A DNA stretch of 23,401 nucleotides. Origin: a virus. Its lineage: Duplodnaviria; Heunggongvirae; Uroviricota; Caudoviricetes. This document shows positions 616 through 20,294 of this stretch, one piece after another (positions within the stretch are counted from its first letter, which is position 1; the number at the start of each line of letters is the position of its first letter). The position numbers and the translations under genes were made by a program. Under the pieces are notes generated by a model that was given only the letters and a program-made list of their open reading frames with translations, had not been told where the DNA came from and did no database searches. The stretch lies in the IMG/VR virus record IMGVR_UViG_2667528074_000003, positions 1 to 23,401 of that record. One strand, given 5' to 3'.

Positions 616-629
616 ATGAGATTTCATCT

Positions 630-1373: not shown

Positions 1374-1758
1374 TTAATAAATGGCTATTTTTACAAAGAG
1401 ATAATAACGTAGATTGAAACAATATGTATTATTGATTGATTAAACGGGATTATTTTTTACACTACAACCATTTTGCTGCCACTACCAAAGAAAAAGGGGC
1501 TACGCTTTCACGTAACCCCTTGATTTATTTGTTGAGCTGGCGGTGTCTGAATTGGTGCTGTAATTGGTTGAAATATTTATTCTAATGTCTGGTTCAACTT
1601 TCCTTAGCTGCCTGAAAGTTTTTTTGATCTTACCCATCAATAATAGGGTTACGGTACACCACGCCTGACTGATGAACTGCGTGCTCAGGGTTACCTCTTC
1701 AACGTAAAACCGTGGCAGGAGGTCCGGACTGAAAAAACTGCTCAGGACATTATCGGCG

Positions 1759-2016
1759 GTGGACGCACGGGTAGTCTGTAAACCGAACCGACTGGGGCGC
1801 AGTATGTGGCATCTTGTCGTGCTGTTGGAGGAGCTGTGCAAACGTGGTATTAACTTTCGTGCTCTGGCCCAATCTATATTTGCCCAACAATGGGGGGACG
1901 AATGCTGTAAAAGTAAAAGAATCTGCGATCTCAAAGTTATTGTGTTATTTTTATGTGAGCAGAAGATATTCATCAGAAACGATTATGTAAATCATTTTAT
2001 TTTGCCGACGGCCTGA
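1759..2016 (+). pseudogene. remnant of a Pin/Hin-type serine recombinase (DNA invertase), internal fragment only
   Basis: Translation VVCKPNRLGRSMWHLVVLLEELCKRGINFRALAQSIF matches the conserved central block of serine invertases as I recall it (Pin: VVWKLDRLGRSMKHL...ELRERGINFRSLTDSID). No N-terminal catalytic-Ser region or C-terminal HTH; the ORF tail is unrelated. Confidence 0.5.
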
Positions 2017-2285
2017 TTGTCGAAAGAAAAGAATACCCCCGTATTCCCTGAATAGATTGACTTTTTTATCCAACCATACTTCAGCGCACTGCGTTTAAAA
2101 AATGCTTCTTTCTTATGTGGAATATCATCATTTCATCATGATGTCTTTGATGAGCGGTGAACACAATACACTTGCGCTGTCTCTTCAGGATGAATCCCCT
2201 GGTCTGGTGCCTGTGGGCTGATGTTGCAGCAGAGCTAAGGTCGCTTAAACGCTACTCAGTATTCACTTTTCAGAGGATGAAATTT

Positions 2286-5200
2286 ATGAACAGGACCAGT
2301 CCCCATTATTGTCGCCGCTCAGTACTTTCCTTATTGATATCTGCCTTGATATATGCCCCGCCTGGGATGACGGCCTTCACTCCTGATGTTATTGGTGTGG
2401 TAAACGATGAGACTGTAGATGGCAGCCAAAGAGTAGATGAACGAGGTACAACAAATAACACTCATATTATCAACCATGGCCAGCAGAATGTTCATGGCGG
2501 GGTATCTAATGGAAGTCTTATTGAATCGGGTGGATATCAAGATGTAGGAAGTCATAACAATTTTGTGGGGCAGGCTAATAATACAACCATTAACGGAGGA
2601 AGACAGACAATTCATGACGGGGGCATTTCCACCGGTACGATAATCGACAGTGGCAATCAGGACGTTTATACAGGTGGTATCAGCAATGGAACGACAATTA
2701 AGGGTGGTAATTCACACATAAGTGGGGGGACTGCGAATGGAACCATCATTGATGGTGGAGGGCAGAAAGTAACAACTCAGGGGCATGTTGATGGTACAAC
2801 GATAAATAAGTCCGGTTATCAGGACATCACGCAAGGAAGTATTGCAACGAACACAATCATAAATGGTGGACGACAGTATGTTGAACAGAGCACAGTAGGA
2901 ACAACCACCATTAAAAATGGCGGTGAGCAAAGAGTATATGAAAGCCATGCGCTGGACACGACGATTGAAGGTGGAACTCAGTCTCTGAATAATAAGTCAA
3001 CGGCAAAAATACTCAGATCTATTCTGGTGGTACGCAAATTGTTGATTACACCAGCTCCTCGGATGTTATTGAAGTTTATTCCGGTGGCGTGCTTGATGTT
3101 AGTGGTGGTACGGCAACAAATGTTACCCAGCACGATGGTGCAATTTTAAAAACAAACACTAACGGTACGACGGTGAGCGGTACGAATAGTGAAGGTGCAT
3201 TCTCCATCCACAATCACGTGGCAGACAATGTGTTGCTGGAAAACGGTGGTCATTTAGACATAAACGCATATGGTTCGGCAAACAAGACGATTATTAAAGA
3301 TAAAGGAACAATGTCAGTTTTAACGAATGCTAAAGCTGATGCGACCCGAATAGATAACGGCGGGGTAATGGATGTTACCGGAAACGCGACCAATACCATA
3401 ATCAATGGTGGTACACAGAATATTAATAATCATGGTATTGCCACGGGTACCAATATCAACGGCGGAACGCAAAATATCAAGAGCGGCGGGAAAGCTGACA
3501 CGACAATTATATCCTCCGGGAGCCGGCAGGTTGTTGAGAAAGATGGTACGGCAACTGGCAGCAATATTAGCGCCGGAGGCTCGCTGATTGTCTATACCGG
3601 TGGTATTGCACATGGGGTTAACCAGGAGACGGGCAGTGCTTTAGTTGCCAACACGGGCGCAGGGACTGATATTGAAGGATACAACAAGCTCTCTCACTTC
3701 ACTATTACCGGAGGGGAGGCTAATTATGTTGTGCTGGAAAATACCGGCGAACTGACGGTAGTGGCTAAAACCTCGGCGAAAAATACTACCGTTGATGCTG
3801 GCGGTAAGCTGATTGTCCAGAAGGAGGCTAAAACAGATACCACCAGACTTAATAATGGTGGCGTTCTGGAGGTTCAGGACGGTGGTGAGGCTAAGCATGT
3901 TGAGCAACAATCCGGCGGCGCATTAATTGCTTCCACAACTTCCGGAACCCTTATCGAAGGAACCAACAGTTATGGTGATGCTTTCTACATCAGGAATTCA
4001 GAAGCTAAAAATGTAGTGCTGGAAAACGCTGGCTCATTAACAGTCGTCACTGGTTCCCGGGCAGTTGATACGATTATTAATGCCAACGGCAAAATGGATG
4101 TTTATGGAAAAGATGTTGGCACTGTACTCAATAGTGCTGGCACCCAAACAATATATGCCAGTGCCACTTCTGATAAAGCAAATATCAAAGGTGGCAAGCA
4201 AACGGTATATGGATTAGCCACTGAGGCAAATATCGAAAGTGGTGAACAAATTGTTGATGGTGGGTCAACAGAGAAAACACACATCAATGGTGGCACGCAA
4301 ACCGTTCAGAATTATGGTAAGGCAATCAATACCGATATCGTCTCTGGCCTACAACAAATTATGGCAAACGGGACAGCGGAAGGTTCCATTATTAATGGGT
4401 GTTCACAGGTAGTTAATGAGGGCGGTCTGGCTGAAAACTCGGTGCTTAATGACGGCGGCACACTCGATGTGCGGGAGAAAGGCAGCGCAACGGGGATACA
4501 GCAGAGTAGCCAGGACGCTTTGGTTGCAACCACCAGGGCGACGCGGGTCACAGGAACACGCGCGGATGGCGTCGCGTTCAGCATCGAGCAGGGTGCGGCG
4601 AACAATATCCTGCTGGCAAATGGCGGCGTGTTAACCATGGAGTCAGACACCTCTTCTGACAAAACACAGGTCAATACGGGCGGACGGGAGATCGTCAAAA
4701 CAAAAGCCACTGCGACAGGCACGACGCTCACCGGCGGCGAACAAATCGTCGAGGGGGTGGCGAATGAGACAACGATTAACGACGGCGGAATACAAACAGT
4801 TTCAGCTAACGGAGAGGCAATAAAAACAAAGATCAATGAAGGCGGTACGCTGACAGTTAACGATAATGGCAAAGCGACAGATATCGTCCAGAACAGCGGT
4901 GCCGCTCTCCAGACGAGCACGGCTAACGGTATTGAAATCAGCGGTACTCACCAGTACGGCACTTTTTCCATTTCCGGCAATTTAGCGACCAATATGTTGC
5001 TGGAAAATGGCGGTAATTTATTGGTATTAGCAGGTACCGAAGCTCGCGACTCCACGGTTGGCAGCGGTGGAGCCGCCAACGGCAGTTATCGCAGCAACGG
5101 GCTGGGCGGTCACATTGAAACCGGGATGCGATTTACCGATGGTAACTGGAACCTGACGCCGTATGCATCGTTAACGGGGGTTCACCGCTGATAACCCTGA

Positions 5201-5546
5201 ATATCATTTATCCAATGGCATGGAATCGAAATCAGTCGATACCCGCAGTTTATATCGTGAACTGGGTGCAACGCTGAGTTACAACATGCGTCTGGGGAAC
5301 GGTATGGAAGTTGAGCCGTGGCTGAAGGCGGCTGTGCGCAAAGAATTTGTCGATGATAACCGGGTGAAAGTGAATAGTGACGGTAATTTCGTCAATGATT
5401 TGTCGGGCAGACGTGGAATATACCAGGCAGGTATTAAAGCCTCATTCAGCAGTACGTTAAGCGGGCATCTTGGGGTGGGGTATAGCCATGGTGCCGGTGT
5501 GGAATCCCCGTGGAACGGGGTAGCTGGTGTGAACTGGTCGTTCTGA
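2286..5546 (+). pseudogene. AIDA-type autotransporter adhesin gene, disrupted by three homopolymer frameshifts and with a shortened beta-barrel domain
   Basis: RBS GAGGA then ATG 2286; signal-peptide-like N-terminus MNRTSPHYCRRSVLSLLISALIYAPPGMTA; long passenger of ~19-aa repeats (GGxQxVxxGGxAxxTxI); autotransporter C-terminus ending VAGVNWSF. Frame changes at A5 (3005-3009), and G5 (5176-5180); the barrel-like part is only ~150 aa. Confidence 0.6.
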
Positions 5547-5560
5547 CCATCAACGAAAAA

Positions 5561-5576
5561 GCCCACATCTGTGGGC
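5561..5576. terminator. hairpin after the autotransporter stop (GCCCACA..TGTGGGC) flanked by A5 and T3
   Basis: Inverted repeat 5561-5567/5570-5576, 15 nt after stop 5544-5546; short T tract, so terminator function is uncertain. Confidence 0.4.
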
Positions 5577-5706
5577 TTTCATGTCACCAGGAGCCGCGGC
5601 TCCTTTGCGTATCCTTTTATGTCTCTTCACCGTCTGGTCGGTGTCCTGCTGAGACTGCTAACTTCCTGTTTTTATTGGTGTTGTCCTTATACCGTCCAAT
5701 CATGAT

Positions 5707-5733
5707 TGGTGGAGCTGGCGGGAGTTGAACCCG
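5707..5733 (-). other. prophage attachment-site core: 27-nt copy of the 3' end of tmRNA (ssrA)
   Basis: Reverse complement reads CGGGTTCAACTCCCGCCAGCTCCACCA, which is a T-arm plus acceptor-3' strand plus CCA and matches the ssrA 3' terminus as I remember it. Not a complete RNA gene: the sequence beyond 5734 is unrelated. Integrase stop lies 133 bp away. Confidence 0.6.
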
Positions 5734-5865
5734 TGATCGGAATTCACATAGTTTATTGAATATGAACGATTTATTTTTTCACGCAAGGAATTATGTGCAT
5801 TTTACGTACATATTGTTGTCCCTGTAACGTCCTGATTCTGTACAATATTCTGAAATATTTTACCG

Positions 5866-7038
5866 TTACCGGGCTGCAGAAATCGCCGTTTTTCCATCGT
5901 ATTCTGCAAGGTAAGAGCCGTAATGTCTGAACAGCATTTCCGGTCCTTTGTGCCCCATCTGACCAGCCAGCCAGAACAGGTTAACGCCCTGGCTAATGTG
6001 CCGAGTGGCGAACGTATGGCGTGTCTGGTACGGATTGCGATAACGTACACCAGCCTTTTTAAGGGTCGGTACCCAGGCTTTTTTGCGGATCGCATCTGCG
6101 TTTGCCCAGGGAGCTCGAGTTTTCGGATCGCTGAATATGAAGTCGCTTTTTAGCGCCGTGTAGGGCTTTTGTGCCTGAAGAGCTACCAGCGCTTCGTTGT
6201 TCAGTTGTACTTTGCGAGTACCGGCTTTTGTTTTGGTACTTTTGATTACCCCGACTACGCTTGCAGTCTGGACATGTGCTGTGTTGCCGATGAAGTCTAT
6301 ATCTGTCCAGCGCAACGCGCACAATTCCGAGCTGCGTAGTCCGGTATTAAAGGCGAAACGAAACAGATTTTGCCATTCCGGGTAATGACAGGCGTCATAG
6401 ATTGCTGCTGTCTCTGCTGGCGTAAAAGGATCGACCTCGTAATCATCACTGCCTGGTGTGTTGTCCAATACGTGATACCGGCTGGCGCTGACCAGCGTGA
6501 CAGGATTTATTGTTAACAAACCATCGGTCACCGCTTCATCTATGGCGCTGCGCAGAAATGAAAGATTATTGCGGATCGTTTTCAGTTTTGTTTTTCTGCT
6601 GGCGATCCAGTTTTTGAGTACTGCAGGTGTCAGTTCTGATACATGAAATTTATGCAGTGCTGACAGTGCAGACAGGCATTTTTCATACCCTTTAATTGTC
6701 GATGGCGACAGGTTACGGTTCTGGCAGATAGTCAGGTATTCATCCAGGTAAGATTTTATATTTTTGTTTTTTTTCACTCCCCCGAACAGCTCCAGCTTTT
6801 GGGAGTTGGGGAAGTATTTTGCATATTCGAAGGTACCACCGATAATCTGATTTTTTATTTCTCCCAGCAGACGCTCGGCATACTTCACACCGCGCGCGTT
6901 TACTTCCATTCTGGAGAGGGGCTCCCGACACAGAACCCCTTTATATGTAAAAGTGATAACCAGAGTGCTACCAGTTTTATGCTGGCGAATAGTTACTCCT
7001 CTAGGGAGAGATAATGATCCTTGTTCTTTCTTGCCCAT
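5866..7038 (-). CDS. int: tyrosine site-specific integrase (lambda Int family)
   Basis: 390 aa; C-terminal catalytic region with RHTFATRHISQG and LAGQMGHKGPEMLFRHYGSY (conserved His/Arg and catalytic Tyr); GGAG RBS; adjacent to att core and transcribed toward it. Confidence 0.9.
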   Translation of the reverse strand: MGKKEQGSLSLPRGVTIRQHKTGSTLVITFTYKGVLCREPLSRMEVNARGVKYAERLLGEIKNQIIGGTFEYAKYFPNSQKLELFGGVKKNKNIKSYLDEYLTICQNRNLSPSTIKGYEKCLSALSALHKFHVSELTPAVLKNWIASRKTKLKTIRNNLSFLRSAIDEAVTDGLLTINPVTLVSASRYHVLDNTPGSDDYEVDPFTPAETAAIYDACHYPEWQNLFRFAFNTGLRSSELCALRWTDIDFIGNTAHVQTASVVGVIKSTKTKAGTRKVQLNNEALVALQAQKPYTALKSDFIFSDPKTRAPWANADAIRKKAWVPTLKKAGVRYRNPYQTRHTFATRHISQGVNLFWLAGQMGHKGPEMLFRHYGSYLAEYDGKTAISAAR

Positions 7039-7202
7039 TTTGAAATCTCCATTAAGTCGACCCAGCGTTCTTTAACTCCGTCGACTTTTAATACATGTAC
7101 CCCTTCTTTCCATATTCCTCTTTGTATCCGTTTGTTAACGGCATCAACCGTTTCTCCCGCGTCGCGGCAGTAGGTTGATATAGGTACGCAATCCAGCCCC
7201 AT
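6993..7202 (-). CDS. xis: excisionase-like small DNA-binding protein
   Basis: 69 aa, basic, directly upstream of and overlapping int by 46 nt; strong RBS GAGGTGA 5 nt before ATG 7202. Assignment by position and size, not by clear motif. Confidence 0.55.
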   Translation of the reverse strand: MGLDCVPISTYCRDAGETVDAVNKRIQRGIWKEGVHVLKVDGVKERWVDLMEISKWARKNKDHYLSLEE

Positions 7203-7210
7203 ACATCACC

Positions 7211-7357
7211 TCACACAACATTTAGCCCACGGCAGTGGCACCACACTTCAAACATTCGCTTCACAATTTCACGACAATAGAAACCGTCAACATCTCGCGT
7301 CAGGTCATAGCTATTGCCGTAACGCTGGCGTACCCATAGCTCAAACGCTTTATTCAT
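7211..7357 (-). CDS. hypothetical small protein (48 aa)
   Basis: Not in the ORF track (<60 aa). ATG 7357 preceded by AAGGAAG; its stop TGA sits 8 nt before the xis start; translation MNKAFELWVRQRYGNSYDLTRDVDGFYCREIVKRMFEVWCHCRGLNVV. Confidence 0.35.
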   Translation of the reverse strand: MNKAFELWVRQRYGNSYDLTRDVDGFYCREIVKRMFEVWCHCRGLNVV

Positions 7358-7360
7358 TCT

Positions 7361-7603
7361 TTACTTCCTTTTCATGGCACGTAATTTTTTCAGATGAGCT
7401 TCCTGTTCTGTTTCTGCCAGAATTTGTCGGTATTCCTGGTGATCGATCCGTTCAAACGATTCATTAAAATCGTTCATTTTTACCGATTGTGTTTGCCCGT
7501 CCATTCTTCTGTACAACACGGTGTTGTTTATGTAGCGAACAATTTTTACCGGGTAACCGGCACTGTCGGTATACAGTTGTCCTTGATTAATCAGAGCGAA
7601 CAT
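7361..7603 (-). CDS. hypothetical protein (80 aa)
   Basis: Internal start of the 121-codon track ORF chosen because AGGAGA lies 6 nt upstream of ATG 7603; tightly packed with the flanking genes. Confidence 0.5.
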   Translation of the reverse strand: MFALINQGQLYTDSAGYPVKIVRYINNTVLYRRMDGQTQSVKMNDFNESFERIDHQEYRQILAETEQEAHLKKLRAMKRK

Positions 7604-7634
7604 TTTTTCTCCTGCTCTCTGAATAGTGAGAACT

Positions 7635-8018
7635 TCAGAGTCGTATGTTTGTAGCGGGTTTAATACTGATAATTTCTGCTGAGACAAGCATCCCGGCAAG
7701 CCAGAGCTCTCTGGACAGGTCTTCATCCTGGCATATCAGTTCGCCAATATTAATGGTGGCCATGATATCCGTTTCCCCAGTACGCTTATCCCTGACTTCT
7801 TCATAAGGTAGCGTTGCGTACAGGCTTTCAATAGCGCAACTGATAACATCCAGTCCGGTCAGATTGCCGCCGACAGTAACTTCGAATGTTTCGCGGTATT
7901 CCCATAGTCCGAAAGTTAATCGAACGGTTTGTTTTGCCATGCGTCCGCACGACGTCAGATTCGGGTCATAGTTCATTATTTTCGGTTGAGTATTCTGGTT
8001 GTTCATCTGATTTTTCAT
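7635..8018 (-). CDS. hypothetical protein (~127 aa; start uncertain)
   Basis: Track ORF 7635-8081 would overlap the SPFH gene by 35 nt, so the in-frame ATG at 8018 is preferred; no clear SD. A perfect 6-bp GC hairpin (8024-8039) lies just upstream. Confidence 0.4.
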   Translation of the reverse strand: MKNQMNNQNTQPKIMNYDPNLTSCGRMAKQTVRLTFGLWEYRETFEVTVGGNLTGLDVISCAIESLYATLPYEEVRDKRTGETDIMATINIGELICQDEDLSRELWLAGMLVSAEIISIKPATNIRL

Positions 8019-8046
8019 TAACCCGGCGGTTTGCCGGGCATATAAG

Positions 8047-8874
8047 TTATTTAATCTGGATAAATGGTGTATTGGCACCACTGGTCATGTATTGCGGCAG
8101 TGTACCGTTCCACTTGTTGATGGCTTCCAGTTCCATGACGCCTGGGTTCTGGCGCAGAGCTTCGCCGCGTAAACGAATGGCATCGGCTTCTGCCTGGGCT
8201 TTTGTACGAATCGCATCAGCCTGTCCGGCAGCTTCCGCGCGCAGCATGTTGGCTTCCGCTTCGCGCTGTTTTACTTCCTGCTCGCGTTGCAGGGTTTTCT
8301 GGTTCGCCGTGACTTTGGCATTAATGCTGTCGATAACGGTTGGCGGGTATTCCGGCTTACCCACATATGAGAGGCTCATTACCTGAATACCAATGGGTGT
8401 CATTTCTTCCTGAATGTCTTTGAGAGCTGCATCCAGAAGTTCAGACTTACCGCCGTCGATAAATTTGTCGGTGGTCATTTTGCTGGCCAGTCGGTTGAGT
8501 GCATCTGCGATCTTCTGGCGCAGGTCTGTGTCGGTAATGTCATCCACGCCTTTGCGGTAGGTCTGAAACACCGTGGTAACTTTGGATGGATCAACTTTGT
8601 AGGCCACACCGATGTGATAGCCGATGGTTGTACCGTCACTCATCTGGAAACTGAACGGTTCATCGTAGGTCTTCATTTGTTTGAAGGTGGGGAAGATATA
8701 AACTTCAGTATTCCAGCCAGTCCAGTAGCGACCAACACCGACCACCTCACCGACGCCTTTGTCGTCGCCCAGTTTATTTACCTTGATGCCAACATTACCT
8801 GGTTCAACGCGATCGCAACCGACAAGGCCAATGGTCGGAATAACAATGGCTAAAGCAAAAATAACTTTTTTCAT
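8047..8874 (-). CDS. SPFH/band-7 (stomatin-prohibitin-flotillin-HflK/C) domain lipoprotein
   Basis: 275 aa; N-terminal signal with lipobox (MKKVIFALAIVIPTIGLVGC); SPFH-like core; C-terminal Ala/Glu/Arg/Gln-rich coiled coil (QREQEVKQREAEANMLRAEAAGQADAIRTKAQAEADAIRLRGEAL); AAGGA RBS; ATGA overlap with the upstream gene. Confidence 0.8.
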   Translation of the reverse strand: MKKVIFALAIVIPTIGLVGCDRVEPGNVGIKVNKLGDDKGVGEVVGVGRYWTGWNTEVYIFPTFKQMKTYDEPFSFQMSDGTTIGYHIGVAYKVDPSKVTTVFQTYRKGVDDITDTDLRQKIADALNRLASKMTTDKFIDGGKSELLDAALKDIQEEMTPIGIQVMSLSYVGKPEYPPTVIDSINAKVTANQKTLQREQEVKQREAEANMLRAEAAGQADAIRTKAQAEADAIRLRGEALRQNPGVMELEAINKWNGTLPQYMTSGANTPFIQIK

Positions 8875-9059
8875 CTTTTATCCTTAGTGAAAGAAAGACC
8901 CTTGTAAATGGCATAAATGCAGGGCGGGGTCAGAAACGCCAGTGCAAAGCCGGAAATGACTGCTACCGTATCCTTCATGGATATAAGGAACGGGACGAGT
9001 AGTCCGTAAATGCATGCGATAATTGCCAGTAAAATTACTATTCTGAAATACAATCTCAT
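8871..9059 (-). CDS. small two-helix membrane protein, translationally coupled to the SPFH lipoprotein
   Basis: 62 aa with two hydrophobic stretches (IVILLAIIACIYGLLVPFLI and VISGFALAFLTPPCIYAIY); its stop overlaps the SPFH start (ATGA). Weak RBS. Confidence 0.55.
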   Translation of the reverse strand: MRLYFRIVILLAIIACIYGLLVPFLISMKDTVAVISGFALAFLTPPCIYAIYKGLSFTKDKR

Positions 9060-9203
9060 TGGTTTGTTGCATCCCGATATTTTTAACTGACTGACAGCGC
9101 AATAAAGAGAATAATGATTTCTGTTAGTGTCAGTACTGTGGCAAGGATTAAAAACAGTTTTACTCTGCTTAATTCACGGTTGCTTTTCATATAAACGGTT
9201 AGT

Positions 9204-9229
9204 AAAAAAACGGAAGAATTATATTCTTC
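9204..9229 (-). terminator. rho-independent terminator downstream of the 193-aa gene
   Basis: Minus strand reads GAAGAAT-ATA-ATTCTTC followed by CG and T7, beginning 8 nt after the stop at 9237. Confidence 0.5.
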
Positions 9230-9236
9230 TTAATAT

Positions 9237-9818
9237 TTAATGTGTCACTGGTGCTTCTGGTATACCATGAGTATTCAGATCGTGAATCATTTCATCCAGA
9301 AGGAGTTCAAGCCCTTCGCGCCCCATAGCAGAGACAATGAAGCCATTATCAGGATCTGCGATGAGCATTTTTTGATAGAGAAACAGAACTCGCCCCATGC
9401 CTTCATCTTCGCCATATTTTTCAATAAATCCCCATTCGACATGGTTTTGCAGGGCAATGCGAAGTGGCCCCGGGTATATACTCATACAACCATGCTTTCC
9501 CTTATAAATAACTGCGTGATCTGTGGTTCCGTTATCGTTAGGGATATCAATGGTACCGTTCTTGTTTTCCTCTTCACTGATAAACGTCGCCACATACAGC
9601 CAGCGCCATTGAGCAACCTTCATATCGACTGAAAATCTTCCCAGGAATCCGGCATCATCGGCTTCTGCAATACATTGCATGATTCTTAAACCGTGCCAGC
9701 ATGGATTGTCGTACTCACCATCATTAAGACGCTGTACGGCCTCAACATAATCAATGGTTGTACTGTCAATTTTTATGCCATGAGCTGTCGCTTCTGGTTT
9801 GAATTCAAAATTGTTCAT
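9237..9818 (-). CDS. hypothetical protein (193 aa), downstream member of an overlapping two-gene unit
   Basis: ATG 9818 preceded by AAGGAA; start overlaps the stop of the upstream 72-aa ORF (ATGA); no recognisable domain. Confidence 0.6.
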   Translation of the reverse strand: MNNFEFKPEATAHGIKIDSTTIDYVEAVQRLNDGEYDNPCWHGLRIMQCIAEADDAGFLGRFSVDMKVAQWRWLYVATFISEEENKNGTIDIPNDNGTTDHAVIYKGKHGCMSIYPGPLRIALQNHVEWGFIEKYGEDEGMGRVLFLYQKMLIADPDNGFIVSAMGREGLELLLDEMIHDLNTHGIPEAPVTH

Positions 9819-10033
9819 AATGTTTGTTCCTTTGCTGGTGGAATAATCGTGTAACCCGCTCTTTTTGCCATCCACAGAAATGTATCCATGCAACCAACGA
9901 ATTCATTATCCAACAGATGTTTTGAGTAAATCACTTTCCCATTTTCAATGGTCAACAACACTCTTACTTTTTCGTGTATTACCCCCCCCTGCTCAGGCTC
10001 ATTCTGCATTTTATTTCGTGCTGATGTCTCCAT
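9815..10033 (-). CDS. hypothetical protein (72 aa), upstream member of the overlapping two-gene unit
   Basis: ATG 10033 preceded by GGGAGA at 8 nt (the track start at 10048 is an alternative); stop overlaps the next start. Confidence 0.55.
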   Translation of the reverse strand: METSARNKMQNEPEQGGVIHEKVRVLLTIENGKVIYSKHLLDNEFVGCMDTFLWMAKRAGYTIIPPAKEQTL

Positions 10034-10231
10034 TATTTTATCTCCCATAAGCCTTGCGCAAATACAGGTTGGCTATATGAAGATAAGAATCTCCATGTTG
10101 TGCAATGAGGCAGGCAGTTTTATACGATGCCTTATTTTTCAGGAAAGTCATAACTGAGTTCCCTCTATGAATAAAAGTTGTAACAATTCCCGGCGATAAA
10201 ACCGTAATAAACGTTCAGGGCATATTGGTTG

Positions 10232-10597
10232 TTATTGCGCTAATTCTTTTTCGGCAGCAGCATTTGCATATTCACATGCAAAATTCAGAATTTCGCTGCC
10301 AAGTGTTTTTGTTTCATGATTACTGGACATATGTAATACCTGTGTTGCATGCAATAAATGATAAACATTGACCGCAAATGAATCAGGTTCCAGACAAATG
10401 CCTTCATAATCATCTTGCTGTGAGGTTGTTTCTGTCATTGTTCCCGAAGTACATGCGAACCTGTTTTTGACAATACTCTTTCCTCTAATCACTATATCGG
10501 CAACATCTATTGCTTTTATAACCTCCGGGAGAAATTCCTGGTTTGTATAATCAAACTCATCAACACAGAGAACGGTTATGTTTTCGAACTTTTTCAT
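10232..10597 (-). CDS. hypothetical protein (121 aa) whose C-terminal ~65 aa are paralogous to the N-terminal domain of the upstream 153-aa HTH protein
   Basis: ATG 10597 overlaps the stop of gene 10594-11055 (ATGA). Shared block: DSFAVNVYHLLHATQVLHMSSNHETKTLGSEILNFACEYANAAA versus DSFALNIANLLSAVRTFHLLDCARSKELGIEVMEFIHEYALSAA. Confidence 0.6.
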   Translation of the reverse strand: MKKFENITVLCVDEFDYTNQEFLPEVIKAIDVADIVIRGKSIVKNRFACTSGTMTETTSQQDDYEGICLEPDSFAVNVYHLLHATQVLHMSSNHETKTLGSEILNFACEYANAAAEKELAQ

Positions 10598-11055
10598 GCG
10601 CAAGTATCTCCAGCTGTTGGTTTACCGGTTAACAGCCACATCGGATCGCAACCAAGAACATTTGCCAGCGGGATAAGCATACTGATAGTTGGTTCATACT
10701 CTCCGCTCTCCCACTGGATGATGATATCTTCATCGAGATCGAGCAGACTGGCGAGTTCGGCTGTTGTTAAGCCGCAGGCTTCGCGTTGGGTGCGAAGGTT
10801 AACCAGCCAGCTTTTAGGGAAGGATTGTTTTTGTTGTGCAGGAGAAGCCGCAGATAGAGCATATTCATGGATAAATTCCATTACCTCAATGCCCAGTTCC
10901 TTTGAGCGAGCACAATCCAGAAGATGGAATGTGCGTACAGCACTTAGCAAATTTGCAATATTTAATGCAAAGGAATCAAGTTCTAAGCCCTTAAGCGTAA
11001 CACAGCCGCAGTTGATAAAATTAGTTGTTTCTGGAGTTGCGTTTAGTGTCTTCAT
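10594..11055 (-). CDS. two-domain regulator: N-terminal domain of unknown function plus C-terminal XRE-type helix-turn-helix
   Basis: 153 aa; C-terminal HTH LRTQREACGLTTAELASLLDLDEDIIIQWESGEYEPTISMLIPLANVLGCDPMWLL; first gene downstream of the pL-like promoter; RBS GGTGGA. Confidence 0.65.
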   Translation of the reverse strand: MKTLNATPETTNFINCGCVTLKGLELDSFALNIANLLSAVRTFHLLDCARSKELGIEVMEFIHEYALSAASPAQQKQSFPKSWLVNLRTQREACGLTTAELASLLDLDEDIIIQWESGEYEPTISMLIPLANVLGCDPMWLLTGKPTAGDTCA

Positions 11056-11108
11056 ATATCCACCAACAATTTTAAATTGAACTAAATCAAGTTATAATTG
11101 ATGGTGCG

Positions 11109-11137
11109 ATATTATGCTTTGAGAAATAGGCTGTCAA
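11109..11137 (-). promoter_or_regulatory. sigma70 promoter for the leftward early operon (pL analogue)
   Basis: Minus strand: TTGACA, 17-nt spacer, TAATAT, placed between the cI terminator and the 153-aa gene; leader contains palindromes ATCAA-N7-TTGAT and CAATTTAAAATTG. Confidence 0.5.
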
Positions 11138-11165
11138 GAAAAAATTGATATCGTGTGTTTTAGGC

Positions 11166-11189
11166 AGAAAAAAACGGGCAAAGCCCGTT
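11166..11189 (-). terminator. rho-independent terminator downstream of cI
   Basis: Minus strand AACGGGC-TTT-GCCCGTT followed by a T tract, starting 12 nt after the cI stop. Confidence 0.6.
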
Positions 11190-11200
11190 AAAATCAAAGA

Positions 11201-11890
11201 CTAACCAAATCTGTTTATATTGAATGGTACTGATGAGATCACTTTAGACTGGATATAAAGCAGAGCTAACCCCTCTTTTTCGATGCTCCATGGTTGATAA
11301 TTGGGGTTATCAGATAACACCATGATTTTGCTTCCAATTTTTTGAAGTCTTTTCACGTAGCATTCTCCATCAAAACAAAATGCATAAATGCCATCGCCAT
11401 CAAAATAAGTTACTGTCTTATCAAGAAAAAGAAGGTCGCCAGGTGAGATTGTGGGAGCCATACTGTCTCCTCTGGCGTTGCCTATTTCTATATTTTTAAA
11501 TGCTCGGTTTCCAACAAGACGACGGGCATATTCAGGATCAAGTTCTATTGAGCGTACTACATCTATAAAGTCTCCGCGGACATGGGTCCCATTACCGCAA
11601 CTAAATTCAACGTCAAGTACATTAAACACGACGCTATCTGTTCTTGCCTGATGTTTCTCTTGCGAAGAGAAGGTTGGTGAGGTGTCTTCACCTAAGAACC
11701 AGGATTGTGGATAACCGCTAATCTCTGATAACTGCGCAAGCTTATCGCTCCGTGGAAATGTTTTTCCTGTGGTCCAGTACTGCACTGATTGCGCACTCAC
11801 CCCCAGCTTACGGGCCAGCTGAGCCTGAGTCCATCCTTTTGCTTTCAGCATTGCGGCTATTCTATTTTCTGTGTTTTTGACGTTCTTCAT
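11201..11890 (-). CDS. cI: CI-type prophage repressor (N-terminal HTH plus C-terminal S24/LexA-like autopeptidase)
   Basis: 229 aa; HTH WTQAQLARKLGVSAQSVQYW; S24 motifs GDSMAPTISPGD (Ser nucleophile) and CYVKRLQK (Lys); divergent from a cro-like gene. Confidence 0.85.
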   Translation of the reverse strand: MKNVKNTENRIAAMLKAKGWTQAQLARKLGVSAQSVQYWTTGKTFPRSDKLAQLSEISGYPQSWFLGEDTSPTFSSQEKHQARTDSVVFNVLDVEFSCGNGTHVRGDFIDVVRSIELDPEYARRLVGNRAFKNIEIGNARGDSMAPTISPGDLLFLDKTVTYFDGDGIYAFCFDGECYVKRLQKIGSKIMVLSDNPNYQPWSIEKEGLALLYIQSKVISSVPFNINRFG

Positions 11891-12023
11891 GACCAGGTCC
11901 CGTGGGTTTCTTTACAAGGGTAAATCTTTACTTGATTTTAGTGTATTCGATCCTTTTGCAACTTGCATGTTAATTTAAACTTGATGTATTCTTGATTCAT
12001 TAAGTTTATCTTGGTGATTTGTT
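11891..12023. promoter_or_regulatory. immunity-region operator/promoter interval between cI and cro (OR analogue)
   Basis: 133-bp divergent intergenic region with four CTTGAT-type repeats (ACTTGATTTTA, ACTTGATGTAT, TCTTGATTCAT, TCTTGGTGATT) and palindrome TTTACaaggGTAAA; the same ACTTGAT motif recurs in the pL leader. Exact -35/-10 not resolved. Confidence 0.5.
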
Positions 12024-12296
12024 ATGAAAGGAAATGATTACGACGAACTTCGTGCATTAATTGCGCAAAATGCCATAGCGCGAAATCTTGGTGTGACACC
12101 GCAAGCGGTGAATCAGTGGTTTTCAAAAAGCACAATTCCTGCTCGTTTCGTTTTACGGGTATGTGAGGTGGTTGCATGGAAGGTTACGCCTCATGGCTTA
12201 AGGCCAGATCTTTACCCTCACCCTGAAGATGGAATTCCTGATTCGTTACGCAAAACATCAAATCCAAGCTTAGCGCACACGGGGGAGGGGAGGTAA
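12024..12296 (+). CDS. cro: Cro-like small HTH regulator (YdaS/Cro type)
   Basis: 90 aa, divergent from cI; HTH-like LGVTPQAVNQWF; RBS GGTGA 6 nt upstream. Confidence 0.7.
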   Translation: MKGNDYDELRALIAQNAIARNLGVTPQAVNQWFSKSTIPARFVLRVCEVVAWKVTPHGLRPDLYPHPEDGIPDSLRKTSNPSLAHTGEGR

Positions 12297-12302
12297 GGAA
12301 GT

Positions 12303-12431
12303 ATGAACGAAGAACGAATCGAATGCATTCTTGAGGCCATATCAGCCCTTACCGACGAAGAGATTCAGGAGGCAAGGACTGTTGCTGAAAAAACAGCCTT
12401 AGCTTTGGGATTTTCGGTTAATCCTGGTTGA
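12303..12431 (+). CDS. hypothetical small protein (42 aa) translationally coupled to cro
   Basis: Not in the ORF track; ATG 12303 lies 6 nt after the cro stop with RBS AAGGAAG; translation MNEERIECILEAISALTDEEIQEARTVAEKTALALGFSVNPG. Confidence 0.4.
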   Translation: MNEERIECILEAISALTDEEIQEARTVAEKTALALGFSVNPG

Positions 12432-12645
12432 TGGAGTTATCCAGAACGGCAGCGATGTATTCACACATATCCTGTCCTCGCTCCCTCTGCTGTTGCGGCT
12501 GACTTTTCAGGTTTTTAATTAACTCCATTCCGGATGCTGCGAGCTTTATTCGCTCTTGGATGGGAAGGGACGACAGCAATAAACCAAGTAATGCCTCAAG
12601 GCCGTCTAGCTTGGTTTCAACGCTGAATTTAGTTGTATCAGTCAT
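12418..12645 (-). CDS. hypothetical protein (75 aa) convergent with and overlapping the 3' end of the cro operon
   Basis: ATG 12645 preceded by AAGGAAA and by an extended -10 promoter; helical, charged sequence; overlaps the 42-aa ORF by 14 nt. Confidence 0.45.
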   Translation of the reverse strand: MTDTTKFSVETKLDGLEALLGLLLSSLPIQERIKLAASGMELIKNLKSQPQQQRERGQDMCEYIAAVLDNSINQD

Positions 12646-12678
12646 AGGTAATTTCCTTACTGGTTGTGTGAGAACTCC

Positions 12679-12715
12679 AGTATACCACCGAGCCTGAAGT
12701 GGTTAAAAGACAGGC
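12679..12715 (-). promoter_or_regulatory. leftward extended -10 promoter (TGGTATACT)
   Basis: Minus strand TGG-TATACT about 25 nt upstream of the RBS of the 75-aa ORF; weak -35 (TTAACC). Confidence 0.45.
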
Positions 12716-12940
12716 AAATTGAAGAGGCTAACCATGACTCCAGAAGAATTTATCTGCAAACACATAACGGAAAAGCTGGTGGCGGAGGGCTTCCCTGAAA
12801 TTGTTGCCAGGGGGGGGCATGCCGGGGACTGGATTACTACCGCCGTAGCTCGCAGGCCAGCCGCAAAGGAGCGATGTTTAATGATTGCTTGTTTCGTGCG
12901 CGGCAATGGGCACTTGGTCAGACAAATGTTACTGAGCGAA

Positions 12941-12984
12941 AGGAAAAGAAAAAGCCGGGCCGGATTAAGGTGGGCCAGCCCGGC
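12941..12984 (-). terminator. rho-independent terminator for leftward transcripts
   Basis: Minus strand GCCGGGCTGG..loop..CCGGCCCGGC (10 bp including one G-U) followed by TTTTTCTTTTCC. Confidence 0.4.
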
Positions 12985-13129
12985 CTGTCCTGACTTACCT
13001 TTGGAATCAACCTTCAAGGAGCTGTTCCATGATAAACGCCCGATTAATCACTGATCCTGACCGCCAACCGGAGGGCATTAATCACCAGACTGGAAAAGGC
13101 CTCAATCATCTGACTAAAGGACATTGATC

Positions 13130-13441
13130 ATGCTTAACATTAGCAGCACTCAAAAATTAGTCAACCCTTCAGATCCTGTTGGACAAATTCCGGTCGAACA
13201 GTGGTACAGAAGAACGTACGTGGTTTCAGAGTACGCCCGCACTTATACCGAGACAATTATCGGAAAGGCCAAATGCCCCTGTTCCGCAGCTGTGAATGGT
13301 GCGATGGCAATACGTAACGCCAATCCTTCGGTTTTATCCATCCGTTTTATAAGTATTGAGCAGCTTTCTCCTGAAGAAGGAGAGGCCAGCGAGCGCGCCC
13401 TTAACGCCTGGTTTGAGAAACATCCTGAGGAGATTGAATGA
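13130..13441 (+). CDS. hypothetical protein (103 aa) coupled to the downstream Rha-like gene
   Basis: ATG 13130 (the track TTG at 13124 is less likely); stop overlaps the ATG of gene 13438-14148. Confidence 0.5.
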   Translation: MLNISSTQKLVNPSDPVGQIPVEQWYRRTYVVSEYARTYTETIIGKAKCPCSAAVNGAMAIRNANPSVLSIRFISIEQLSPEEGEASERALNAWFEKHPEEIE

Positions 13442-14148
13442 TGAACACCGCAATTTTTAACGACAAAGTATCCATGACCAGCGTTGAAATCGCAGAGCTG
13501 GTTGGAAGTCAACACGGCAATGTCAGAATATCAATAGAGCGTCTGGCAAAACGCGGGGTGATTCAACTTCCTGCAATGCAAAAAGTTGAGAACGAACAAT
13601 CATTTAGCCAAAACAAATTCACAAACGCATATATTTTCGAAGGCGAACAAGGCAAACGCGACAGCATCATTGTCGTCGCACAACTTTGCCCGGAATTCAC
13701 TGCCCGCCTGGTAGATCGTTGGCGCGAACTGGAAGAGCAGGTGCGCAAACCAATGAGCGAAATCGAAATGGTTGCCGCGATGGCTCTTGAAGTAGTTCGT
13801 CAGCAAAAACGCCTCGACAAGATGGAAGAAAAAGTTAGCCACGTTGCCGAAACTGTCGAACAAATCAAAAGAGGCACCATACGCGATGGTTATGCAGGAT
13901 ACCGTCAGCTGGTGGCGAAAACAGGTATGTCAGATGCTAAATGCCGCAATCTGGTGAACGCATATCAGATCCCTACCGACACCCATGAATTTATGACGCC
14001 AGACGGATTATTGTCTCGTCGCGCGATTGTTGCAGTAGAACCCTTCATGTTTGCTTTTCATCGCATGATGAGTGAAGCAGAACCACGAGGTACTCGCTGG
14101 TATCACCCGAAAATGGGCCTGTTTCAGGCGCTGGGCTGGCAGGTGTAA
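13438..14148 (+). CDS. phage regulatory / antirepressor-like protein with N-terminal Rha-type DNA-binding region
   Basis: 236 aa; N-terminal MTSVEIAELVGSQHGNVRISIERL ... RWRELEEQ resembles the N-terminus of phage Rha/antirepressor proteins as I recall them; C-terminal half unassigned. Confidence 0.65.
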   Translation: MMNTAIFNDKVSMTSVEIAELVGSQHGNVRISIERLAKRGVIQLPAMQKVENEQSFSQNKFTNAYIFEGEQGKRDSIIVVAQLCPEFTARLVDRWRELEEQVRKPMSEIEMVAAMALEVVRQQKRLDKMEEKVSHVAETVEQIKRGTIRDGYAGYRQLVAKTGMSDAKCRNLVNAYQIPTDTHEFMTPDGLLSRRAIVAVEPFMFAFHRMMSEAEPRGTRWYHPKMGLFQALGWQV

Positions 14149-14362
14149 TTATGCTCACAGGTAACACATGCAAGTACTCAATCGCTGGTTCCGCGATGGC
14201 AGAGGGCGTCGCGTCCACGTTATACACTGGGAGTCTGAAACACAGCGGGTCATTTACCTGCGTGATGGTTATTCGCATGAATGCTTCAGTCCGTTGTGGT
14301 TGTTTCGTCGTGATTTTGTGGAGTGTGAAGCGCCGCCAGAGTGACGGCGTAATGGTGGAAAC

Positions 14363-14671
14363 TTACACGAAGCGGATCTGGAGTTTTTTTCCTGTTGCGC
14401 GGGCAAATTTTTTCAGTGTGGAAAATGATGGTCCACTGACACCTGACGCCAGATTACTTTCCATTCTGCTGATGACAGTTGCTTTGGTTCCCATACGCTC
14501 AGCGATCTCAGCTTGGGTTAAACCAGCTTCTTTACGTGCTGCCAGCATTTCATCAAGCAACGCAAATTCGTCGGCGATGGCGTCGTATTCTGCTTTAAAA
14601 GCTGGATCCTCCATCCATTTATCAGCCATTTCATCATGTGTAATGGTTGGCGGATTACGTTTACCAGTCAT
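14363..14671 (-). CDS. HigA-like antitoxin (XRE HTH)
   Basis: 102 aa with HTH GLTQAEIAERMGTKATVISRMESN; immediately downstream of and overlapping (11 nt) the toxin gene, the toxin-first order typical of HigBA modules. Confidence 0.8.
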   Translation of the reverse strand: MTGKRNPPTITHDEMADKWMEDPAFKAEYDAIADEFALLDEMLAARKEAGLTQAEIAERMGTKATVISRMESNLASGVSGPSFSTLKKFARATGKKLQIRFV

Positions 14672-14990
14672 GCTTTACCTCCTTCATTCTGGTTTCAGCT
14701 TTTTGGCGTTCGGCTGGTGGGGTTTTCTGGGTCTTCTTGATGAAACTATGCAGCATGATGATGCGTTTTCCTGCCAGGGTGCAGTAAAAGACGCGTGCGA
14801 TGCCATCACTACCTTTAATCCGAAGCTCGAAAAGCCCGTTACCGAAAGCACTGGTATGAGGTTCTCCGAGATTGCTGCCGTATACCTTCATGCGTTCAAC
14901 AAGATGCTGGTATCGGGCACGCATACTCAATGGAAGCTGGTCGACCTCCAGCCTGACCTCTTCACTGTAGTATTCGATAGTGTAGTTCAT
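14661..14990 (-). CDS. HigB/RelE-superfamily toxin (phage gp49-like mRNA interferase family)
   Basis: 109 aa; characteristic motifs NGLFELRIKGSDGIARVFYC and IMLHSFIKKTQKTP. Confidence 0.8.
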   Translation of the reverse strand: MNYTIEYYSEEVRLEVDQLPLSMRARYQHLVERMKVYGSNLGEPHTSAFGNGLFELRIKGSDGIARVFYCTLAGKRIIMLHSFIKKTQKTPPAERQKAETRMKEVKHDW

Positions 14991-14996
14991 GAGTTA

Positions 14997-15020
14997 AAAC
15001 ATAACAAAATGGTTATGTTT
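14997..15020. promoter_or_regulatory. palindromic operator candidate upstream of the toxin gene
   Basis: Perfect 9-bp inverted repeat AAACATAAC-N6-GTTATGTTT ending 7 nt before the toxin start codon; overlapped by a TTGTGC-17-TATGTT promoter-like element on the minus strand. Confidence 0.4.
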
Positions 15021-15671
15021 GCACAATATATTGATTCTGCAATTTCGGGACGTTACACTGTTCCAGCACCTTATAAAGCGGGTGCCGGGATTTGCACCCC
15101 GGAATTGCATACGGCGATATATGACGCGCCAGCGTCTTTTTTATCGTCCGCGCTCACGCACGCCAGAATTATGGTGGGCTGGGTAGGGGAGCCGAAAGGC
15201 TCGCCGGTTTCCGTATGCGCCGGTAGTGCAAACCCTGTTCAGTCCGCCACCAGCGAGATTTGCACCTCCGGTGGTGGAAGTTATCCATTGCATACGGAGG
15301 CTGCCATCATGGCTACAGTCCCAACTTCCCCATTCCTCAAAATTGAGATCGTCAACGGTAAGGCCGTTATTTTTTCCCTGCATGTTGCCTGCCACTTCAA
15401 GCGCATGCACCAGAACATCGTTGACAAAATCGAGTATCTGAACTGCTCGCGTGAATTTTTTACCCGCAATTTCATTCCGGGTACTTATCACATCTATGGT
15501 GACTCTCTGCGTGGTTATTACATCACCCTTGATGGTCTGATGATGCTTCAGCTTGGGTTAAGTCTGCGCACAATGCGGTACTACGAGAGCTGTATTGATG
15601 CATTCCATGAAGCTGAAACCGTCCAGGTACATTCCGCTTTCCGTCGTCATCAACGGGAGGTGCACCTATGA
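15009..15671 (+). CDS. Rha-domain phage regulatory protein, tandem paralog 1 (start uncertain)
   Basis: C-terminal ~110 aa carry a Rha-like winged-helix pattern (SLHVACHFKRMHQNIVDKIEYL ... YYITLDGLMMLQLGLSLRTMRYYESCIDAFHEAE). ATG 15009 has no SD; an internal ATG at 15309 has a GGAGG RBS. The frame stays open upstream only because it is antisense to the TA genes. Confidence 0.55.
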   Translation: MVMFAQYIDSAISGRYTVPAPYKAGAGICTPELHTAIYDAPASFLSSALTHARIMVGWVGEPKGSPVSVCAGSANPVQSATSEICTSGGGSYPLHTEAAIMATVPTSPFLKIEIVNGKAVIFSLHVACHFKRMHQNIVDKIEYLNCSREFFTRNFIPGTYHIYGDSLRGYYITLDGLMMLQLGLSLRTMRYYESCIDAFHEAETVQVHSAFRRHQREVHL

Positions 15672-16333
15672 TCCGCTACCTGAATATTGATTCTGCACTT
15701 TTGGAACGTTACACTGTCTCTGCACCTTATAAAGCGGGTGCCGGGCGTGGAAACCCGAAATTCAATATAGAGCACAACCGCGCTCATGCGGTTTTTTCGT
15801 GTCATGAGCATTGCTACGCCCAAATTATGGTGGGGCGTGCAGGGCCAACTTCGGTTGGGCCGGGTTCTATGTTGACCGGTATTTCCACCCCTGTACGTCT
15901 CACCACCTATATGGTCGTGGAAAGCCTTGGTGGTGAGTTCTTTGAATTCAACATAGGGGCTGTCACCATGACTACCACCACTACCCACCCATTCCTCAAA
16001 ATTGAGATTATTAACGGTAAGGCCGTTATTTTCTCCCTGCATGTAGCCTGCCATTTCAAGCGCATGCACCAGAACATCGTCGACAAAATCGAGTACCTGA
16101 ACTGCTCGCGCGAATTTTTCACCCGCAATTTCATACCGGGTACTTATCACATCTATGGTGACTCTTTGCGAGGTTATTACATCACCCTTGATGGCCTGAT
16201 GATGCTTCAGCTTGGGTTAAGTCTGCGCACAATGCGGTACTACGAGAGCTGTATTGAAGCATTCCATGAGGCAGAAACCAGCGTGAATCATACCGCTTTT
16301 CGCCGTAATCAATGGGAGGCGCGCCATGTGTAA
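15668..16333 (+). CDS. Rha-domain phage regulatory protein, tandem paralog 2
   Basis: 221 aa; ATG overlaps the stop of paralog 1 (ATGA) and is preceded by GGGAGGTG; the C-terminal domain is nearly identical to paralog 1 with mostly synonymous differences. Confidence 0.65.
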   Translation: MIRYLNIDSALLERYTVSAPYKAGAGRGNPKFNIEHNRAHAVFSCHEHCYAQIMVGRAGPTSVGPGSMLTGISTPVRLTTYMVVESLGGEFFEFNIGAVTMTTTTTHPFLKIEIINGKAVIFSLHVACHFKRMHQNIVDKIEYLNCSREFFTRNFIPGTYHIYGDSLRGYYITLDGLMMLQLGLSLRTMRYYESCIEAFHEAETSVNHTAFRRNQWEARHV

Positions 16334-20051: not shown

Positions 20052-20294
20052 ATGACTTTTACCCCTGAACAATTACGTAAACAGGCACAGGAAATGTTGC
20101 GACAAGCGGAACAACTGGAAAAAACAGGTGTAACAAAAGATACCATTCGTCGGGATATGGTTCCCGCGCTCAGAGAATTGATGCAGGCGAAACACCGTGC
20201 ACAAAAAGCGGTGGATGAGCTGGTGGATTGTGTGGCAGAGCTGGAAACCAAAGTTGGAAAGTTTGAAAAACTGGTGCATGAGGTGCTGCGCTGA
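20052..20294 (+). CDS. hypothetical small helical protein (80 aa)
   Basis: ATG 20052 (track TTG at 20037 overlaps the helicase stop); stop overlaps the ATG of the next gene; weak RBS. Confidence 0.45.

Follow-up and report, generated by a model that had tools for sequence, protein, structure and literature searches.

Identity and gene content of the operon

Does a leftward early operon that lacks the familiar lambda genes hold undescribed accessory cargo, or is it a known gene string under other names? The question is raised by a lambdoid-style prophage in a stretch of 23,401 nucleotides (nt), positions 1 to 23,401 of the IMG/VR virus record IMGVR_UViG_2667528074_000003 (hereafter the window). 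Positions 7211-11055 are filled by a run of co-oriented minus-strand open reading frames (ORFs) between the excisionase gene xis and a sigma-70 promoter. The initial annotation had described this region as a tightly packed operon of nine unannotated ORFs without exo, bet, gam, kil, cIII or N, divided into modules by internal hairpins.

Nine ORFs of at least 40 amino acids (aa) were scanned against Pfam, PHROGs, NCBIfam and PADLOC, and two smaller ORFs against Pfam and PHROGs only. No exo, bet, gam, kil, cIII or N homolog was found among the 11 ORFs at an E-value of 0.1 or below, so that the absence of these lambda functions was borne out. Each of the nine longer ORFs belongs to an existing PHROG family. 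Two genes were assigned to regulatory families (XRE-type HTH_3 and DUF4222) and none to a recombination family. PADLOC returned only generic helix-turn-helix (HTH) matches (RmrA and capH), all on the product of the first gene of the operon; the other eight ORFs gave none.

When the region was compared with the Shiga toxin 2e (Stx2e) phage phiP27, it aligned with phiP27 positions 1644-5778 (genes L03-L10) at 93.8 % identity over 92 % of its length. Each operon gene was recovered in phiP27 by tblastn, with L10 differing in its N-domain, which places the operon among those of the phiP27 type. In phiP27 the genes L03-L10 are all labelled "unknown" apart from L05, which is a "putative serine protease" or "lipoprotein". 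Of 5426 complete E. coli genomes, 925 were matched by a query of 7.7 kb (5800-13500), most closely that of E. coli C5 (96.5 % over 99 % of the query). The RefSeq annotations of E. coli C5 and A36 give the gene order of the window, and the names used in C5 are DUF4222, DUF5406, SPFH domain-containing, helix-turn-helix and hypothetical proteins.

We conclude that 7211-11055 is very probably the early-left (pL) operon of a phiP27-like temperate E. coli prophage, known, widespread and mosaic, and no new system. The view of these genes as unannotated and undescribed cargo was not upheld. They are annotated in RefSeq and in phage records, they have Pfam and PHROG families, and the gene string entered the databases with the phiP27 deposit (AJ298298), parts of it being present in up to about one tenth of the complete E. 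coli genomes. The absence of the lambda early-left functions is itself a known property of phiP27-type phages. What the analysis adds is a corrected map with 10-11 genes, real start codons, operators and conserved structures (Table 1).

The operon as such stood, and its gene count rose from nine with the inclusion of the small ORFs p37 and p35. Because p37 is open in seven of seven related loci (73-100 % amino-acid identity) and its synonymous codon changes exceed the non-synonymous ones in comparison with divergent relatives (13/9 and 15/10), it is probably a real gene. In the case of p35, one synonymous change stands against 3-5 non-synonymous changes, so its coding status stays unproven; no family match was found for it in Pfam or PHROGs. 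Three gene pairs within the operon are joined by ATGA stop/start overlaps (10597/10594, 9818/9815 and 8874/8871). However, the packing is not uniform: the spacing of less than 35 nt claimed throughout is exceeded between ORFs of at least 40 aa at 9060-9236 (177 nt) and 10049-10231 (183 nt), and gaps of 46 and 80 nt remain when p35 and p37 are counted. Folding of these two long spacers gave no stable structure (z +0.5 and +0.9).

Table 1 Features of the early-left operon and its surroundings (window coordinates)
Feature	Position	Strand	Remarks
Tyrosine integrase, int	5866-7038	-	relatives annotated tyrosine recombinase
Excisionase, xis	6993-7202	-	phrog_2917, E 1e-40
48-aa protein adjoining xis	7211-7357	-	phrog_3871, E 4e-35
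DUF4222 protein, 80 aa	7361-7603	-	Pfam DUF4222, E 2e-15; distant RgdR-family member
DUF5406 protein, 127 aa	7635-8018	-	123 aa from ATG 8006
GC hairpin, CCCGGC-AAACC-GCCGGG	8021-8039	-	stem-loop 8022-8038, closing G-U pair 8039/8021, 5-nt loop
SPFH/Band-7 lipoprotein (predicted), 275 aa	8047-8874	-	Band_7, E 6e-31; phrog_200 "lipoprotein", E 3e-114
Two-transmembrane protein, 62 aa	8871-9059	-	phrog_1130, E 8e-24; stop overlaps SPFH start (ATGA)
p35, possible 35-aa single-transmembrane peptide	9083-9190	-	open in 5/5 cassette-bearing loci
Weak hairpin and T7 run	9204-9229	-	stem 9229-9213, 7 bp, A/T-rich, 2 GC pairs
L06-like protein, 193 aa	9237-9818	-	phrog_1515; start overlaps L07 stop (ATGA)
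L07-like protein, 72 aa from ATG 10033	9815-10033	-	phrog_340, E 1e-24; ORF open to 10048
p37, 37-aa gene	10038-10151	-	below 40-aa cutoff; annotated in PhiR49_2
Non-coding spacer, 80 nt	10152-10231	-	between L08-like gene and p37; core ATTACGGTTTTATCGCCGGGGATTGT
L08-like protein, 121 aa	10232-10597	-	phrog_5451, E 1e-77; start overlaps L10 stop (ATGA)
L10-like regulator, 153 aa, first pL gene	10594-11055	-	HTH_3, E 1.4e-10; phrog_4836, E 2e-77
OL operator copies, ATCAAG-N6-TTGAT (17 bp)	11086-11102; 11133-11149		0 mismatches; 1 mismatch
pL-like sigma-70 promoter	11137-11109	-	TTGACA 11137-11132, 17-nt spacer, TAATAT ending 11109
Intrinsic terminator after repressor gene	11166-11189	-	stem 11189-11173, 7 bp, 5 GC pairs, T-run
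cI-like repressor	11201-11890	-	XRE HTH and S24/LexA-type peptidase domain; NCBIfam LexA/UmuD-type and HTH matches
cro-like gene	12024-12296	+	divergent to cI
Q antiterminator	20294-20677		

Promoter, operators and predicted expression

The pL-like promoter (10/12 consensus positions) was the best minus-strand site found by a hexamer scan of 6900-12400. One of its two operator copies, that at 11133-11149, overlaps the -35 hexamer. Three further copies of the motif with two mismatches each lie between cI and cro at 11920-12015, at pR/pRM. Matches to the motif number 20 in the window against 10 expected, clustered at pL and at the cI-cro sites. The layout, with the promoter beside the repressor gene and operators common to pR/pRM, is that of a lambda-type pL region. 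The motif has the OL/OR pattern expected for a cI-type repressor, and we infer that it is bound by the one encoded here. The repressor gene lies outside the operon region and defines the immunity region; its RefSeq relatives are named "XRE/LexA family transcriptional regulator". The terminator that follows it (-11.2 kcal/mol, z -3.5, equalled by 0 of 200 shuffles) should keep transcription from pRM out of the pL operon.

Among internal minus-strand promoter sites the highest score was 9/12, reached only at 10438-10409, inside the L08-like gene, and the scan placed no internal minus-strand site upstream of the SPFH gene and its partner. A boxA- or nut-like element was not seen by eye in the short leader of the operon. 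Rfam searches over 6900-12400, at gathering thresholds and at E-values of 1 or below, gave nothing credible (one chance snoRNA match, E 0.16).

The initial annotation expected part of the operon to be expressed in the lysogen. This has no support in the sequence, as operators flank pL, a strong terminator follows cI and no strong internal promoter was detected. Given the operators at pL and pR and that terminator, the better prediction is that the operon is silent in the lysogen and transcribed on induction. Bound to the two operators on either side of pL, the cI-like repressor would close the promoter, and the terminator behind cI would stop read-through, so that transcription of the operon would begin on SOS induction. 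In a prophage without N or nut, it would then meet only weak structures on its way to xis and int, and read through them.

Assortment of blocks and the two hairpins

When the operon was compared among related prophages, its genes were shown to form blocks that assort independently among related phages, as the suggestion of swapped modules had implied. Block A comprises the DUF5406, DUF4222 and 48-aa proteins, followed by xis and int. Block B is a portable membrane cassette (possibly p35, the phrog_1130 two-transmembrane protein and the SPFH lipoprotein) bounded by the hairpins. Block C consists of the L08-like paralog, p37 and the L07-like and L06-like genes, and block D is the XRE-type HTH regulator (L10-like), which belongs to the immunity region and moves together with pL, cI and cro. 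When the corresponding intervals (A 7211-8018, B 8019-9236, C 9237-10231 and D 10232-11200) were searched in the 5426 E. coli genomes, they were found in 631, 535, 159 and 296 genomes, respectively, and at a coverage of at least 80 % in 135, 215, 80 and 54. At least 80 % of the 5800-13500 query was held by only three genomes. Block B occupies 198 places on plasmids. A recurrent breakpoint was observed at about 10598-10625, between the L08 and L10 genes, and further breakpoints fall at the hairpins.

Both hairpins reported earlier are present in the sequence. The GC hairpin had been placed at 8024-8039 with a 4-nt loop; it exists with the slightly different boundaries and loop given in Table 1. 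It is stable (-14.5 kcal/mol, z -3.3, equalled by 1 of 200 shuffles), has no U-tract on either strand, and lies 8 nt 3' of the SPFH stop codon, at the 3' boundary of the cassette. The weak hairpin, at the 5' boundary, reaches only -4.9 kcal/mol (z -1.5, equalled by 17 of 200 shuffles) and the terminator consensus scan did not pick it up. Its designation as a terminator is not convincing, since the stem is weak despite the T7 run. Neither structure qualifies as an intrinsic terminator, the one having a weak stem (9229-9213) and the other a stable stem without a U-tract, and the four terminator-like sites in the region do not exceed the shuffle expectation of 5.1. At most, the weak hairpin may act as a leaky terminator.

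The block of p35, two-transmembrane and SPFH genes was found together with both hairpins in five loci (the window, E. coli C5, A36, phiP27 and an Stx2d phage). In all five the stem of the GC hairpin is invariant and its loop variable; the weak hairpin is kept only in these cassette-bearing loci, with one G-C to G-U change. In ASU11 and PhiR49_2 the cassette and both hairpins are missing together, the neighbouring L06-to-L08 genes are homologous, and downstream of the L06-like gene other DNA precedes the following genes (DUF5406 in ASU11). Since they are conserved with the block in five loci and absent with it in two, the hairpins are, as judged by locus comparison, the edges of a portable cassette. 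The GC hairpin would most likely stabilise the 3' end of the cassette transcript or mark a site at which it is processed, and would not act as a terminator. In E. coli C5 an insertion of the IS110 family (5216-6629 of locus L001, about 8001-8013 of the window) is located about 15 nt downstream of the GC hairpin, between it and the DUF5406 start codon, and parts the SPFH cassette from block A.

The hairpins therefore mark modules, as had been proposed, but a division into separate transcription units by termination is not supported. The proposal that the region is novel accessory cargo, with internal terminators that make separate units partly expressed in the lysogen, draws on hairpins that are real and sit at true module boundaries, on the filing of the two-transmembrane protein by PHROGs under "moron, auxiliary metabolic gene and host takeover", and on a P1-like phage in which the SPFH pair lies away from a long operon and must there have its own promoter. 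However, the genes are known and annotated, the T7 hairpin is weak and the GC hairpin has no U-tract, the only 9/12 internal promoter is inside the L08 gene with none upstream of the cassette, and the operators and the cI terminator favour repression. We consider that proposal unlikely.

A coupled two-transmembrane and SPFH cassette

The SPFH protein belongs clearly to its superfamily (Band_7, 108 bits against a Pfam cutoff of 23.6). Its translation begins with the signal sequence MKKVIFALAIVIPTIGLVGC, followed by D; the lipobox LVGC, with Cys20 and Asp at +2, fits the pattern L-x-G/A-C, and the protein is predicted to be a lipoprotein. Under the standard E. coli Lol-avoidance rule, Asp at +2 retains a lipoprotein in the inner membrane. 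On this ground the SPFH protein is predicted to be an inner-membrane lipoprotein facing the periplasm. The best PDB and NCBIfam matches were HflK/HflC; the NCBIfam scores of 18-25 bits against cutoffs of 134-660 do not make it a member of that family. The "serine protease" label of the L05/SPFH gene found no support in the Pfam scan. For the 62-aa partner an NfeD domain was not found; Pfam gave only DUF6320 (E 0.028, below cutoff), and phrog_1130 is its sole family.

The pair is not confined to phiP27-type phages. In the early operon of the P2-like phage P88, a phrog_1130 gene again lies directly upstream of an SPFH lipoprotein gene, whose stop codon is followed by an unrelated GC hairpin (-21.1 kcal/mol). 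The pair is also found in a P1-like phage (MH422554), where the small gene is unannotated: it encodes 72 aa at about 4296-4513 on the minus strand of our locus L009, directly upstream of the annotated SPFH gene, and belongs to phrog_1130. In the same phage the SPFH stop is closely followed by a tRNA-like sequence. A seeming terminator upstream of this cassette was discarded because it sits in a divergent promoter region. The SPFH core was found on 196 plasmids, mostly non-mobilizable ones of about 90 kb. We regard the two hairpins as edges of a portable two-transmembrane and SPFH cassette, itself known from three phage lineages, as a useful observation.

The SPFH protein should form an inner-membrane-anchored, periplasm-facing scaffold that works with its two-transmembrane partner, probably with a role of the moron type at the membrane, for example in exclusion, in altering the envelope or in modulating a membrane protease. 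The first of these can be stated as a distinct explanation, namely that the cassette is a superinfection-exclusion or anti-phage module at the inner membrane. Lipoproteins or membrane proteins with superinfection-exclusion function include Llp, Cor, Ltp and SieA. Mobility among three unrelated temperate phage lineages and the 196 plasmids speaks for it, as do the lipobox and Asp at +2 of the SPFH protein. Against this, no PADLOC model was matched, a literature search surfaced no paper linking SPFH to phage defence, and in both P88 and the window the cassette lies in an early lytic operon and no separate promoter is evident for it. An exclusion module is thus a rather doubtful reading.

Another reading was considered, in which the unknown genes would stand in for the missing lambda functions as analogs without homology to them. 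The periplasmic SPFH lipoprotein might, for instance, take the place of cIII by interfering with FtsH-HflKC, and the L06-like or DUF5406 protein could act in recombination or in RecBCD inhibition. The genes occupy the position of the lambda early-left functions, and among solved structures and NCBIfam models the SPFH protein matches HflK/HflC best; the SPFH domains of HflK/HflC are also periplasmic (topology, PDB 7VHP). However, a score of 25 bits against cutoffs of 134-660 is typical of any SPFH domain, the cassette occurs also in P1- and P2-type phages, which have no cII/cIII circuit, and no fold similarity to a recombinase or nuclease inhibitor was found. Such analogs are highly improbable. 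A bolder form joins both ideas: the coupled two-transmembrane and periplasmic SPFH cassette would be a phage membrane system not yet characterised, acting either to keep out superinfecting phages or to remodel the FtsH-HflKC protease cage, with the flanking hairpins setting its expression apart from the pL operon. We give this only a small chance of being correct.

The account preferred here, that of a phiP27-type operon carrying a portable, hairpin-bounded cassette and controlled from pL, has points against it. Because all five loci have an identical GC-hairpin stem, covariation does not favour an RNA structure over a conserved DNA sequence. The hexamer scan is a coarse tool that may overlook an internal promoter. 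That the operon is silent in the lysogen and that transcripts run on into xis and int are predictions only, and for none of the cassette genes was a PADLOC defence match obtained.

The L10-like regulator, its paralog and a conserved spacer

The product of the first pL gene has a variable N-domain, spanning about residues 1-75, and a single HTH_3 domain. The latter scores 41.5 bits against a cutoff of 23 and matches the HTH of P22 C2 and of the 434 repressor in the PDB, so it is of the XRE/Cro-C1 type. Most L10 relatives have 230 aa and two tandem HTH_3 domains; in the 153-aa form of the window the first HTH is joined to the tail of the second at a common "GCDP" motif. E. coli prophages carry two forms of this gene, with two HTH_3 domains (about 230 aa) or one (136-153 aa, as in the window), which differ by deletion or duplication between the "GCDP" repeats (P0059, P0090 and L005 5002-5739 were compared). 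The HTH part is about 95 % conserved across phages and the N-domain falls into at least five types, which follow the cI type in four of four immunity types in the loci examined. The HTH protein would act as an early regulator whose variable N-domain is linked to the immunity type.

The L08-like protein is paralogous in its C-terminal half to the N-domain of L10 (BLASTP against L10 residues 24-70, 45 % identity, E 2e-10). In a profile search of 1.8 billion representatives, the shared domain was recovered in 14 clusters, mostly as free proteins of 60-80 aa or fused to HTH, and no informative fusion was seen. Paralogy, the translational coupling of the L10 and L08 genes and this distribution of the domain are what a SinR/SinI-type switch would show, in which the small protein titrates the regulator off DNA through the common oligomerisation domain. 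However, L08 type showed no co-variation with L10 N-domain type across seven loci, and the recombination breakpoint runs between the two genes. As the L08 type is independent of the N-domain type, titration of this kind is possible but unsupported, and we judge it quite improbable.

The non-coding spacer downstream of the L08-like gene has a core, ATTACGGTTTTATCGCCGGGGATTGT, which is nearly invariant in seven loci even where the flanks are divergent, and it contains ATCGCCGGG(G/A)AT. It does not fold stably (z +0.9). The spacer also holds the near-palindrome ATCGCCGGGGAT (ATCGCCGGGAAT in the window), a candidate that could be a binding site of the conserved HTH protein.

Other operon genes and flanking regions

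The L07-like gene has the sequence GGGAGA 7 nt before ATG 10033. For the L06-like protein a BFVD search gave nothing below an E-value of 0.09. PDB sequence searches with the L06-like and DUF5406 proteins returned no matches, structure searches assigned no fold to either, and a literature search did not find a paper mentioning DUF5406. L06-like, DUF5406 and the L08/L10 N-domain are common in prophages and are without an assigned fold or function, which makes them candidates for functional screens. The 48-aa protein is conserved in six of the fetched relatives (E. coli C5, A36, phiP27, Stx2d phage, ASU11 and PhiR49_2). The genes int and xis, which overlap, form the distal end of the same leftward gene string (5866-7202).

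To the right of cro, Rha/Ant-like genes and O-like, DnaC-like and DnaB-like replication genes were found. Two tandem copies of an isrK small RNA followed by a C4 antisense RNA lie at 15066-15254 and 15722-15910 on the plus strand (Rfam, 62-82 bits; above the gathering threshold). Each copy falls within the 5' portion of one member of a pair of paralogous Rha/Ant-like ORFs, 14151-15671 and 15668-16333 (phrog_995), where the mechanical ORF calls are probably over-extended. A full-length Gram-negative porin gene (20858-21964, minus strand; Porin_1, E 8e-152) is located just downstream of Q.

The left flank (1-5546) contains DUF5507/DUF5508 genes and fragments of an AIDA autotransporter, and on this content it is not part of the prophage. 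At 2157-5546 on the plus strand, just left of the integrase gene, eight AIDA stretches fall in 3089-5191 and a separate beta-barrel fragment in 5220-5546. The AIDA-type autotransporter gene appears broken, and the prophage may have inserted in this gene or next to it.

Comparison with known systems

With the lambda pL operon (N, cIII, kil, gam, bet, exo, xis, int), the operon of the window has its position and logic in common: a leftward operon with an operator-controlled promoter beside the repressor gene, a terminator after that gene and xis-int at the end. In contrast, only xis and int of the lambda pL genes have a homolog in the window, and the first pL gene encodes an XRE-type HTH protein where lambda has N.

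Phage phiP27 (AJ298298 / NC_003356) has the same gene order and families as the window, from the xis neighbour up to the HTH gene, and its early-left operon is likewise without Red and N genes. The two differ in integrase and excisionase, in the cI/cro immunity region and in the L10 N-domain (type 1 in the window, type 6 in phiP27). The window lacks the L08-L10 spacer of about 580 nt that holds L09 in phiP27, and 3' of Q it carries the porin gene, whereas phiP27 carries tRNAs and stx2e.

RgdR (ECs1581) is a prophage regulator of the type III secretion system (T3SS) of the locus of enterocyte effacement (PMC3378721; PMC10877973), and the RGD motif at its residues 20-22 is required for T3SS activation (PMC3378721). 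It shares with the DUF4222 protein of the window the family (82 and 56.8 bits, respectively, on the same model, cutoff 27), the small size and the prophage origin. However, the pairwise similarity is marginal (E 0.21), the lengths are 99 and 80 aa, and the RGD motif aligns with QGQ in the window protein.

In the operons of the SPFH/NfeD type (qmcA-ybbJ and yqiJ-yqiK), a Band-7/SPFH protein is likewise translationally coupled to a small polytopic membrane protein, a two-gene pattern reviewed by Yokoyama and Matsui, as cited in PMC9872710. The partner in the window is instead a 62-aa two-transmembrane protein without the NfeD OB-fold. Unlike the SPFH proteins of these operons and HflK/HflC, the SPFH protein of the window is predicted to be anchored by lipid and not by a transmembrane helix, and its scores are far below the HflK/HflC cutoffs.

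From lambdoid morons the cassette differs in that no promoter of its own was detected and its T-run hairpin lies upstream, not downstream. Like them, the two-transmembrane and SPFH genes are either both there or both missing between neighbours that are conserved, and the pair is common to several phage lineages, with stem-loops at both cassette edges in phiP27-type loci and a stem-loop after the cassette in P88.

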